This document shows positions 2,056 to 34,800 of a stretch of DNA of 38,094 bases, piece after piece (the first letter of the stretch is position 1; the number at the start of each line of letters is the position of its first letter). Under the pieces are notes generated by a model. That model made no database searches. It saw only the letters and a list, made by a program, of their open reading frames with translations, and was not told where the DNA came from. Both the position numbers and the translations under genes were made by a program. The DNA lies in NCBI GenBank assembly GCA_038064295.1, contig JBBTTH010000021.1, positions 1 to 38,094 on the forward strand. The letters run 5' to 3'. Source of the DNA: Patescibacteria group bacterium (lineage in GTDB: Bacteria > Patescibacteriota > Minisyncoccia > Phycocordibacterales > UBA6065).

Positions 2056-2624
2056 TAAAAGCGGAGCAAGAACAGAAAAGAGATGTCCGCGTGGAGACGC
2101 TTGAGGCGCGACGGCGCCGAAACCGAGGACATTTTCTAGCAAGAAAATGTCCGTGCTCCACAAGGATATCTCTTTTCTGTTCTTGCTCTGCTTTTACACT
2201 AATGGAAGTTTTAGTTGTTTTGGCCATAACGACAATTATCGCTACGATATCCGTTGCTTCTTTTGCTGAGTTTTCAAAGAGAGAAGCCCTCGACGCTTCT
2301 GCCACAGCCATAGTGGCAGGATTGCGCGATGCCAGGGCCGAAACTCTGGCTTCTGTCGGTGGATTGCAATACGGTATAGCTGTTTCCCCCGACAAGTTTA
2401 TTTTCTTTCAAGGCACAACTTATGATTCTCTGGCGACCACGAATAAAATATTCAATTTTAGTCCGTATGTTCGCGCTTCATCGAGCATATCTACGGTTGT
2501 CTTTCAGAGACTCACCGGTAATTCTACCGCATCTGGTACAATTGATGTATATCTGATTTCTGATCCGACTGTAAAACGCACGATAAGTATCGGCGGGACC
2601 GGTTTTGTCAACATTCAAAAATAA
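2052..2624 (+). CDS. Type IV pilin-like protein (prepilin-type N-terminal cleavage/methylation motif). The start codon is uncertain.
   Basis: The motif SA|FTLMEVLVVLAITTIIATISVASF is a class III signal plus hydrophobic helix with Glu at +5. ATG 2052 overlaps the pilC stop (ATGA). An alternative in-frame GTG lies at 2091. ATG 2202 would delete the FTL motif. Confidence 0.75.
   Translation: MIKAEQEQKRDVRVETLEARRRRNRGHFLARKCPCSTRISLFCSCSAFTLMEVLVVLAITTIIATISVASFAEFSKREALDASATAIVAGLRDARAETLASVGGLQYGIAVSPDKFIFFQGTTYDSLATTNKIFNFSPYVRASSSISTVVFQRLTGNSTASGTIDVYLISDPTVKRTISIGGTGFVNIQK
2057..2194. repeat. 138-nt palindromic multi-hairpin element between the pilC stop and the pilin class III signal motif.
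   Basis: A 28-bp stem pairs 2057-2084 with 2167-2194, with one G-U pair. Inner helices are gtggag/ctccac (2091-2096/2156-2161), ggcgc/gcgcc (2105-2109/2114-2118) and ggacattttct/agaaaatgtcc (2127-2137/2142-2152). Confidence 0.7.
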
Positions 2625-10758: not shown

Positions 10759-10821
10759 CGGGTCATGCCAGAAGAAGAGAGTTGGTGACAAAAAAATAAA
10801 AAAGTGGAATGTGCCGGGCGA

Positions 10822-10869
10822 GAACAGTCCTCGGGTCGGATTTGTCAAGGACAGACCGTTGACAAATCC
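10822..10869. repeat. Copy 1 of a 48-nt conserved core containing a 10-bp hairpin. Copy 2 is at 34457-34504.
   Basis: The sequence gaacagtcctcgggtcggatttgtcaaggacagaccgttgacaaatcc matches 34457-34504 at 46 of 48 positions. The hairpin is ggatttgtca/tgacaaatcc, and both differences fall in its loop. Confidence 0.7.
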
Positions 10870-10896
10870 TTAAAAGATCTGCGATATCACGCCATT

Positions 10897-10932
10897 TTCT
10901 TTATTTTTTCTTTAGATTTTCTTTATCTCCGT
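10897..10932 (+). promoter_or_regulatory. 36-nt T-rich phased motif (ttctttat-N5-ctttag-N5-ctttatctccgt) ending 16 nt before the comEC ATG.
   Basis: It matches 13045-13080 at 34 of 36 positions, and that copy ends 16 nt before the ATG of the MBL-domain gene. The internal period is about 11 nt. Confidence 0.55.
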
Positions 10933-25510: not shown

Positions 25511-25611
25511 AAAAAAGCGGCGGATACAAAGTTCTCGTCGCTCGGAGAGGGACCCTTGGAAAGGGCACCCCTTGCTCCTCGCGACTCGAACTTTGTATCC
25601 GCCGCTTTTTT
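25511..25611 (+). terminator. 101-nt extended hairpin flanked by A6/T6 runs (family 1, copy 1). It is terminator-like and bidirectional.
   Basis: The arm aaaaaagcggcggatacaaagttc (25511-25534) pairs perfectly with 25588-25611. Pairing continues through gtcgc/gcgac, ggag/ctcc and the apical ccctt-gga-aaggg. Confidence 0.7.
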
Positions 25612-30734: not shown

Positions 30735-30838
30735 AAAAAAAAGCGGCGGATATAGTTCTGCGCTACTCGGAACGGGACCCGCTCCCAGAGTCTCGCCCCC
30801 GTTCCTGCGCTGCTCGAACTATATCCGCCGCTTTTTTT
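30735..30838 (+). terminator. 104-nt extended hairpin flanked by A8/T7 runs (family 1, copy 2). It is terminator-like.
   Basis: The arm gcggcggatatagttc (30743-30758) pairs with 30816-30831. The inner helix is ggaacggg/cccgttcc. The arms are homologous to the 25511-25611 element, with compensatory changes. Confidence 0.7.
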
Positions 30839-33890: not shown

Positions 33891-34427
33891 ATGAAAACTC
33901 TACGAGAAAAACAAATACACGCCTTTGAAGTCATGAAAAAAGATTTCGGTTATAAAAATATCATGCAAGCGCCGAAAATTTTGAAAGTCGTGGTAGCGGC
34001 TGGCATCGGTTCTTTCAAGGACAAGAAAAAAATAGAGCTCGCGGGTGACCGCATTGCCAAAATAACCGGCCAAAAACCGGTTCTGCGCGTCGCCAAGAAG
34101 TCTATCGCCGGTTTCAAGAGCAGAGAAGGAGATCCTATGGGCTATCAAGTGACTCTGCGCGGCAATACTATGTGGAACTTCCTGGAAAAGTTGGTCAACA
34201 TCGCTCTGCCCCGGACAAAAGACTTTCGCGGACTGCCGTCCGCGTCGGTGGACGGCATGGGCGGGTATTCCATCGGCATTCGAGAGCATTCTATTTTTCC
34301 CGAAACTTCCGACGAAGAATTAAAAGACGTTTTTGGCTTCGGTGTTACGGTTGTCACAAACGTAAAGAAAAAAGAGGAAACAAAAAAATTTCTGGAATTG
34401 CTGGGGTTTCCAATCAAGAAAGCGTAA
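33891..34427 (+). CDS. rplE: 50S ribosomal protein L5.
   Basis: NIMQAPKILKVVV..GIG... and GKVTLRG-type YQVTLRGNTMWNFLEKL match the L5 pattern. Confidence 0.95.
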   Translation: MKTLREKQIHAFEVMKKDFGYKNIMQAPKILKVVVAAGIGSFKDKKKIELAGDRIAKITGQKPVLRVAKKSIAGFKSREGDPMGYQVTLRGNTMWNFLEKLVNIALPRTKDFRGLPSASVDGMGGYSIGIREHSIFPETSDEELKDVFGFGVTVVTNVKKKEETKKFLELLGFPIKKA

Positions 34428-34430
34428 AAA

Positions 34431-34546
34431 CAGAAAAGCGGACCCATCTTTCTCTCGAACAGTCCTCGGGTCGGATTTGTCAAGGACAGACCTATGACAA
34501 ATCCTCCCCTGCGGAGGTTCTCAATAAAGATGGGTCCGCTTTTCTG
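34431..34546 (+). terminator. 116-nt structured element: a perfect 21-bp outer stem enclosing copy 2 of the 48-nt core. It is terminator-like.
   Basis: cagaaaagcggacccatcttt (34431-34451) pairs perfectly with 34526-34546. The interior holds the core at 34457-34504 plus the hairpin cctcc-cctgc-ggagg. Confidence 0.7.
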
Positions 34547-34548
34547 CG

Positions 34549-34577
34549 TTGACACCCCTATAAACCTTTGCTAATAT
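34549..34577 (+). promoter_or_regulatory. Near-consensus promoter TTGACA-17-TAATAT upstream of rpsN.
   Basis: It starts 3 nt after the outer stem and lies about 38 nt upstream of the rpsN ATG. Confidence 0.55.
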
Positions 34578-34614
34578 GGCGGAACAAAGCTTTTTCAAGG
34601 CTTTTTTATTTTCA

Positions 34615-34800
34615 ATGGCCAAAACTTCAGTAGTGGCGCGGGCAAACAAAAAACCGAAGTTCTCTTCGAGAATAGTTCGGCGTTGTTTCCGCTGTGGCCG
34701 AAAGAACGGTTTTATGCGTTCGTTTGGGCTCTGCAGAATTTGTTTCAGAGAGCTCGCCAACGAAGGCATGATTCCGGGTATTAAAAAGTCTTCTTGGTAA
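34615..34800 (+). CDS. rpsN: 30S ribosomal protein S14, type Z (zinc-binding, 61 aa).
   Basis: MAKTSVVARANKKPKFSSRIVRRCFRCGR....GLCRICFRE carries two CxxC pairs. Confidence 0.93.
   Translation: MAKTSVVARANKKPKFSSRIVRRCFRCGRKNGFMRSFGLCRICFRELANEGMIPGIKKSSW

Follow-up and report, generated by a model that had tools for sequence, protein, structure and literature searches.

An apparently undescribed, lineage-restricted palindromic repeat with a conserved centre and copy-specific arms between rplE and rpsN of a Patescibacteria genome

What separates rplE from rpsN in this genome? The window analysed here, that is, the whole 38,094-nt stretch of DNA (contig C21), belongs to the metagenome-assembled genome (MAG) G000 (494 kb, 56 contigs, 47% G+C, about 90% complete). 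As judged from the sequence, rplE ends at position 34427 and the ATG of rpsN (zinc-type S14, 61 aa) lies at 34616. The first-pass annotation had described in this gap a perfect 21-bp stem around a 48-nt core that recurs elsewhere in the window. An independent inverted-repeat scan recovered the same stem, and the core was indeed found again between rnhA and comEC with 46 of 48 positions identical, none of 100 shuffles giving any match. The two differences (TA>GT at 34493-34494) fall, as stated, into what had been drawn as a 12-nt loop on a 10-bp hairpin. The apical hairpin is real, but it is better drawn as a 13-bp stem with one bulge and a 5-nt ACAGA loop. It is also the core and not the outer stem that repeats, as had been proposed, but its conserved length is 70 nt instead of 48 nt. 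Called type A, this core combines two 2x2 pyrimidine internal loops with the pairings GAAC/GTTC, TCC/GGA and GG/CC and with the 13-bp apical stem that carries the ACAGA loop. For the 129-nt region as a whole, a single rod is the predicted fold of both strands (-67.9 kcal/mol, z = -10.3 for the plus strand; -75.4 kcal/mol, z = -10.4 for the minus strand). Table 1 lists the parts of the 116-nt element, which represents a single copy of a non-coding palindromic repeat with a lineage-restricted distribution, together with the other features of the window and the state of the orthologous sites.

Table 1 Features of the window and occupancy of compared sites in G000 and its relatives
Feature or site	Position or genome	Strand	Description
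Outer stem, left arm	34431-34451	+	perfect 21-bp complement of 34526-34546; starts 3 nt past the rplE stop; short A-run
Conserved core, type A	34453-34522	+	70 nt; imperfect rod; contains the 48-nt core 34457-34504
Outer stem, right arm	34526-34546	+	ends in GCTTTTCTG, T-tract of 4
rpsN promoter	34549-34577	+	TTGACA-17-TAATAT, TG extended -10; 10/12 match; adjoins the element, not part of it
Degenerate type A copy, rnhA-comEC gap	10791-10909	+	A-tract and left arm, core positions 5-52 (10822-10869); R1 42 bits
Rod hairpin, core family E (12 copies in genome)	2064-2188		21-bp copy-specific arms, 83-nt core
Rod hairpin, core family D	25511-25611		24-bp arms, A6/T6 tracts, 53-nt core
Rod hairpin, core family D	30736-30838		23-bp arms, A/T tracts, 57-nt core
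After rplE	G000		type A
After rplE	G019 (closest relative keeping the rplE-rpsN adjacency)		24 unrelated nt, no hairpin
After rplE	G007 and eight other congeners		plain short terminator
After rplE	G020		other core family in its own long stem
Site of the G020:C5 copy	G000		empty
Site of the G020:C40 copy	G000		family D
Site of the G020:C25 copy	G000		family E
Site of the G019:C36 type B copy	G000		family E
Site of the G007 type B copy (C34/C12)	G000:C16		no hairpin
Behind gene L122:1479-2180	four sister species		families E, D, E' and A
Behind gene L122:1479-2180	most other congeners		plain terminators
In front of gene L122:1479-2180	G007		type B
In front of gene L122:1479-2180	G019		E-like core
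In front of gene L122:1479-2180	G000, G020		none
Only shared type A site found	G000:C36 / G020:C41		cores 64/70, flanking genes 69-72% identical, stems unrelated

Searching for the core genome-wide and in metagenomes brought up further copies in G000, on contigs from the Hainich groundwater well H43 and in other MAGs. The two intergenic contexts first noticed are unrelated, as had been said, but they belong to a multi-copy family with variants and sister families and not to a two-copy repeat. There are eight full type A copies in G000 with 93-100% identity (contigs C21, C37, C25, C44, C28, C48, C54 and C36); the copy at C37:2499-2568 is 100% identical to the core of the window, and the other seven full copies are 93-99% identical. 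Two copies are truncated (C21:10822 and C25:16490), and five are contig-end fragments (C10, C30, C28, C44 and C3). Type B, present in three copies in G000 (C12, C16 and C39) and also in sister species, has a core of about 110 nt with an extra 5' hairpin and a Y-shaped fold; the type A core is a shortened type B that lacks this hairpin. A covariance model of the core common to the types, R1, gave 13 matches in G000. Longer contigs of the same population from the 0.1-um fraction of H43 add four full copies that are only contig-end fragments in the MAG. Throughout four DNA runs the contigs break at the repeats, with a 4-5x depth pile-up there, and no allele skipping the element was found among the contigs of these runs. 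A search of sequencing runs for this DNA came up with no RNA run. An exact-protein look-up with RplE led to one short contig, which ends at the repeat.

The copy between rnhA and comEC is degenerate. Instead of the 3' end of the core and the proximal right arm, it has about 30 unrelated nt; farther out, the A-tract still pairs with the T-tract (10791-10800 with 10900-10909). The flanks of the two cores in the window had been regarded as unrelated; this is not wholly so, since the degenerate copy keeps a left arm whose subfamily is also found in other copies, as well as the distal A/T pairing.

Full copies are enclosed by arms of 13-29 bp, which differ among copies and are complementary within each copy. 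We examined this pairing in an ungapped alignment of 21 type A copies, with a sliding pairing partner as the control. All 21 pairs of the outer stem had changed on both sides, and 93% of the outer-stem cells were paired, with 403 of 441 being Watson-Crick, 7 G-U and 14 A-C. There was no G-U excess, and comparison of G-U with A-C mismatches in the outer stems revealed no strand preference. For the whole structure, 96% of the cells were paired versus 38-52% with the slid partner, the core being nearly invariant. Covariation in the inner stem, which the first-pass annotation had proposed to look for, was observed as well: six inner pairs vary on both sides across types A, B and C and the diverged copy X, with 92.7% of the cells paired versus 36-55% after sliding.

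Other parts of the core do not vary in sequence: GTCCTCGG, GTCAAGG-ACAGA-CCTTGAC at the apex, and CCTGCGGAG. TCTCGA stands at both core ends of types A and B and gives pyrimidine 2x2 internal loops on the plus strand and tandem G-A on the minus strand, whereas in type C and the distant members the core-end junction is an ordinary base-paired stem. Because of this base-paired stem, we do not read the TCTCGA direct repeat as a target duplication. A CsrA-type GGA loop was considered and dropped, as GGA is lost in B_L086 and the distant members. The nearly invariant core and the survival of its motifs across the families of the order show that something presumably recognises the tip of the hairpin, either for mobility or for a host function.

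Core variants and stem types reassort within one genome. The identical cores of C37 and of the window (34453) sit in unrelated stems, and in G020 the copies on C5 and C41 have a common genome-specific core variant in different stems. Stem subfamilies, for their part, are common to non-orthologous sites and to different species over their full length, including the A-tract (G000:C21, G020:C5, G020:C40 and G019:C43). We also observed copies with mixed arms: the copy at L104:6444-6561 is a chimera with arms from two different stem subfamilies, and in G007:C34:9622 and G007:C12:54 (L031, L039) the arms belong to different subfamilies or match another copy's arms. These three copies reflect either recombination between cores accompanied by rearrangement or repeat-induced misassembly.

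The design is not restricted to one core. When G000 was scanned for long interrupted palindromes whose arms measure at least 13 bp, 48 came up. Some 40 of these can be assigned to at least six core families, and together these hairpin elements make up roughly 1% of the genome length. At least five core families besides the type A family share the architecture in G000, and three such copies lie in the window.

In most copies the core starts 20-50 nt past the upstream stop codon, and many sites lie between convergent genes. Where the context is one-directional, the copies run with transcription in about ten cases and against it in five. Of 21 copies, 15 have TTTT within 24 nt 3' of the core and 17 have AAAA before it; the copy at G000:C25:14095 is without A/T-tracts. 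Relatives have plain terminators at the same sites. Together with the placement, the A/T-tracts and the occurrence in both orientations, this indicates that the hairpins stand at terminator positions. From their sequence and placement, they very likely terminate or cap transcripts.

Comparison of orthologous sites revealed turnover (Table 1). It had been asked whether copies are conserved at syntenic positions of related genomes: one shared site was found, but the other compared sites are empty, carry a plain terminator or have a different core family. Empty and filled alleles within one population were found neither among the contigs of the DNA runs nor in the RplE look-up. The gene order after rplE varies too. 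On G020:C19 (L051) the rplE-rpsN adjacency is broken: a family F2 hairpin comes directly after rplE, and behind it lies another gene; other DNA after rplE is also present in G007, G017, G018, G003, G006, G009 and G015. Since G020 and these seven congeners have other DNA there, the spc cluster is split after rplE in much of the genus.

Both sides of the gene at L122:1479-2180 were compared between species. Behind this gene, the T-tract ttttgc abuts the TATAAT of the next gene both with plain terminators and with all four elements. In front of it, the distal right arm tttccgcta abuts the -35 hexamer in all four species and forms an arm in G007 and G019. Since tttccgcta is present in all four species, including two that have no element there, it either belongs to the host or is what an old element left behind. 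In G007, the arms behind the gene contain CAGGTG/CACCTG, the 6-mers of the plain terminator stems of G003 and G006, in flipped order (L128, L131), which might be coincidental or might have been left by an inversion between the arms.

The TTGACA-17-TAATAT promoter that had been noted beside the element is present and is plausible as the rpsN promoter. The promoter and the leader are kept in seven congeners (G019, G002, G008, G005, G010, G004 and G014); in all seven the site lacks the element. Because it is conserved in relatives without the element, the putative promoter is host sequence and lies outside the element. The rpsN leader (34578-34615; orthologous leaders L052-L067) has a small attenuator-like hairpin, AAAGC ... 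GCTTT, followed by a T-run. This hairpin is retained in the same seven congeners, and the rpsN leaders of most relatives have an extra 30-40 nt absent from G000. The leader may be an r-protein autoregulatory leader.

R1 matched 12 of the 22 genomes of the genus, with 1-13 matches each; G000 has the most, G003 none and G006 six. Among 150 other genomes evenly drawn from the order, seven had matches, all of them type B-like Y shapes with stems of their own, and no match was obtained in 150 genomes from the rest of the phylum. In a one-genome-per-species GTDB collection, the exact pattern was present in only four MAGs: JBBTTY01 (Patescibacteria H51-bin043_1), CAZVHT01, JAUSGU01 and DASWWW01. A pattern scan of viral contigs yielded no matches.

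We searched the genomes for an enzyme that might mobilise the repeat. Y1/HUH (PF01797), TnpB (PF07282), DDE_Tnp_1 (PF01609) and IS110 (PF01548) are absent from the carriers G000 and G020; for rve (PF00665) there was no match in G020 and only one below the cutoff in G000. Thus, no transposase common to the carriers was found among these five families. RAYT (Y1_Tnp, PF01797) gave no match in G000, G020, G019, G007, G015 and G009; matches to PF01797 were obtained in G011, G001, G010 and G014, of which only G014 also has R1 matches. Each carrier genome encodes one Xer-like tyrosine recombinase (PF00589). G000 has three DGR-type reverse transcriptases (C6:655-1656, minus strand; C17:1986-3008, plus strand; C54:3-758, plus strand), that on C17 beside an Avd gene (C17:1616-1969, minus strand), and G020 and G019 have four each. 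The reverse transcriptase gene on C54 is two genes upstream of the type A copy behind ftsE. Neither the Xer-like recombinase nor the reverse transcriptases could be linked to the repeats by position or distribution, and the reverse transcriptases were rejected as partners of the repeat, as they are of the DGR type and nothing ties them to it. There is no direct repeat outside the arms that could be a target-site duplication, and TCTCGA brackets the core in types A and B only. Hairpins with a TCTCG loop, which would be empty targets, are few in the genome and none is convincing.

We consider it the best explanation, at a probability of about 60%, that the element is a non-autonomous mobile or fast-turnover terminator-like repeat whose cores would be spread or homogenised by recombination between copies. 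The unit would be, or would recently have been, a non-autonomous mobile element that lands at, or replaces, intrinsic terminators. When transcribed, it would form a long (bidirectional) intrinsic-terminator or 3'-end hairpin, as predicted from the sequence, and at 34431-34546 it would end the rplE transcript just ahead of the host's rpsN promoter. A putative trans-acting factor would probably recognise the invariant loops and the apical stem, which is conserved in sequence, and a protein- or RNA-recognition module, one of the ideas of the first-pass annotation, is possible for the invariant loops. A selfish, mobile or recombination-spread repeat fits better than an RNA selected locus by locus because of the patchy copy number, the gain and loss between sister species, the many families of one design and the replacement of one family by another. 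The lack of a shared transposase, of a target-site duplication outside the arms and of empty and filled alleles in one population counts against mobility.

That the core is almost invariant in fully diverged stems would also suit a cis-acting RNA module kept by selection at the 3' ends of mRNAs and merely presented by the outer stem. Such a module could act as a stabiliser or be bound or processed by a nuclease, chaperone or termination factor; near-identical cores in species whose genes are only about 70-80% identical could be due to purifying selection instead of recent spread. In addition, other families of the order retain GTCCTCGG, TGTCAAG/CTTGACA and CCTGCGGAG, the inner stems covary, and 10 of about 15 one-directional contexts have the same orientation to transcription. 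We nevertheless regard such a module as rather unlikely, since at least six unrelated core families have the same position and architecture in one 494-kb genome, orthologous sites swap families, carry plain terminators or are empty, 10 of 22 congeners are without a copy, and the copies lie in both orientations with no G-U excess on either strand. It is possible, if doubtful, that mobility is limited to the core and no more than a short proximal stem, which would insert into the apical loops of pre-existing host terminator hairpins, the distal arms being host sequence. Cores and stems do reassort, families swap within persistent sites, tttccgcta in front of L122:1479-2180 occurs also in two species without the element, and ttttgc behind this gene is common to the plain terminators and the four element hairpins. 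The G019 site after rplE, however, has no hairpin, so stem and core would have arrived there together; full-length stem subfamilies including the A-tract extend across non-orthologous sites and species; the genome has hardly any plain hairpins with a TCTCG loop, which would be the empty targets; and the 'empty' sites could be deletion remnants. Insertion of the core alone into hairpin tips and gene conversion among whole-hairpin copies would both fit.

A site acting at the DNA level, as duplex or cruciform, for example a recombinase, partition or uptake signal or an operator, would agree with the almost purely Watson-Crick, strand-symmetric stems, with the 7-bp apical stem that is conserved in sequence though paired, and with the chimeric copy L104, whose two-subfamily arms are those expected from recombination between copies. 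We judge it highly unlikely: each carrier has a single Xer-like tyrosine recombinase, the ends are unlike the attC R''/R' consensus and the copies form no arrays, an uptake signal would need far more than 13-17 copies, and the placement behind stop codons with A/T-tracts suits a terminator, not an operator. (As an attC site proper, the element was rejected on its ends, TCTCGAAC ... GTTCTCG, with pyrimidines at the required purines of the consensus RYYYAAC ... GTTRRRY, on its copies dispersed behind housekeeping genes and on the one Xer-like gene.) An independent small-RNA gene, riboswitch or ribozyme is extremely unlikely, despite the strong fold (z of about -10) and the conserved loops. Rfam scans of the window, the element, type B and the distant copies gave no match with gathering cutoffs or permissively at E<=10, the best scores in the element being 10-15 bits compared with gathering scores of 39-60; this is consistent with the earlier statement that the element resembles no known riboswitch or ribozyme. 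The copies have no promoter of their own, lie downstream and not upstream of functionally unrelated genes, occur in both orientations and are patchily distributed. A promoter for a small RNA was looked for in the sequence, and only internal TTGACA hexamers without a -10 were seen on both strands. The suggestion of a repeated small RNA domain was not borne out, as nothing indicates a discrete small-RNA gene and the hairpins stand behind stop codons in either orientation and vary between species.

A further idea, speculative and in our view quite unlikely, is that terminator hairpins in these ultra-small genomes serve as docking sites for exchangeable structured cassettes that would be copied or swapped without a classical transposase, with perfectly complementary arms being regenerated. 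Candidate copying routes would be hairpin-templated (fold-back) synthesis or recombination at extruded hairpins, possibly through one of the three DGR-type reverse transcriptases or the single Xer-like recombinase. If true, mobility of this kind would be new, with recognition and conservation centred on the hairpin tip and not on the ends. The invariant tip, the free stem and the lack of a transposase leave room for a putative recognition factor or a putative way of copying. Genomes as small as about 0.5 Mb are commonly regarded as stripped of selfish DNA, yet G000 still spends about 1% of its length on more than 40 long hairpins exactly where terminators would be needed. The spc cluster is usually continuous. 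If the repeats are mobile terminators, they would illustrate how Patescibacteria form and re-form their operon boundaries, here by splitting rplE from rpsN within this cluster. On the practical side, the hairpin repeats explain many contig breaks in CPR MAGs, and R1 is a family-specific marker.

No paper describing these elements was found in the literature. The repeat is apparently undescribed and lineage-restricted, and its nearest kin in kind are SPRITE, ERIC and REP. With bidirectional intrinsic terminators it shares the A-tract, a G+C-containing stem and a T-tract right after stop codons, and more distant congeners carry plain terminators at the same sites; it differs in having a conserved structured insert of 53-120 nt instead of a 3-8-nt loop and stems of 13-29 bp instead of 6-9 bp. 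REP/REPIN elements are recognised as hairpins and mobilised by RAYT (Y1 HUH) transposases. Like the present repeat, they are short extragenic palindromes behind genes, in which compensatory changes keep the hairpin. In contrast to them, our elements have 3-5 times the length of REP, no flanking GTAG-type tetranucleotide and tens instead of hundreds of copies, with no Y1 transposase in G000, G020, G019 and G007. Compared with MITEs in general, we found a small non-coding hairpin with presence and absence among relatives, but the arms vary at 21/21 paired positions and are common only within subfamilies, and no cognate transposase or IS was found in G000 or G020 among the families searched. Variable ends with a conserved centre are the reverse of a classical MITE. 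ERIC/IRU, YPAL, Correia (NEMIS) and RUP, which are MITE-like imperfect palindromes, resemble our repeat as intergenic imperfect palindromes of 100-170 nt with long hairpins that are co-transcribed at gene 3' ends, are patchy among strains and can affect mRNA processing (review PMC3184786). Their terminal inverted repeats are conserved, they duplicate TA or other target sites, and some have a cognate IS; none of this was found here, where the centre is conserved and the A/T-tracts have the geometry of a terminator. The SPRITE elements of S. pneumoniae, terminator-like repeats enriched at the 3' ends of convergent genes (PMC3049150), were compared by architecture only; no sequence similarity is known. 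SPRITE copies have one consensus over their full length (PMC3049150), whereas in our repeat conservation is confined to the centre and each copy has a stem of its own; moreover, several unrelated core families coexist here and swap at the same sites, and the host phylum is another. The likeness lies in a dispersed non-coding repeat of about 105 bp with A/T-run termini near the 3' ends of convergent genes, a stem far longer than in usual terminators followed by a U-rich tract, no established target-site duplication or transposase, and a proposed co-option as terminator (PMC3049150). Correspondingly, the repeat described here combines a long stem with a T-tract (15/21), a position 20-50 nt past the stop codon and many convergent sites.
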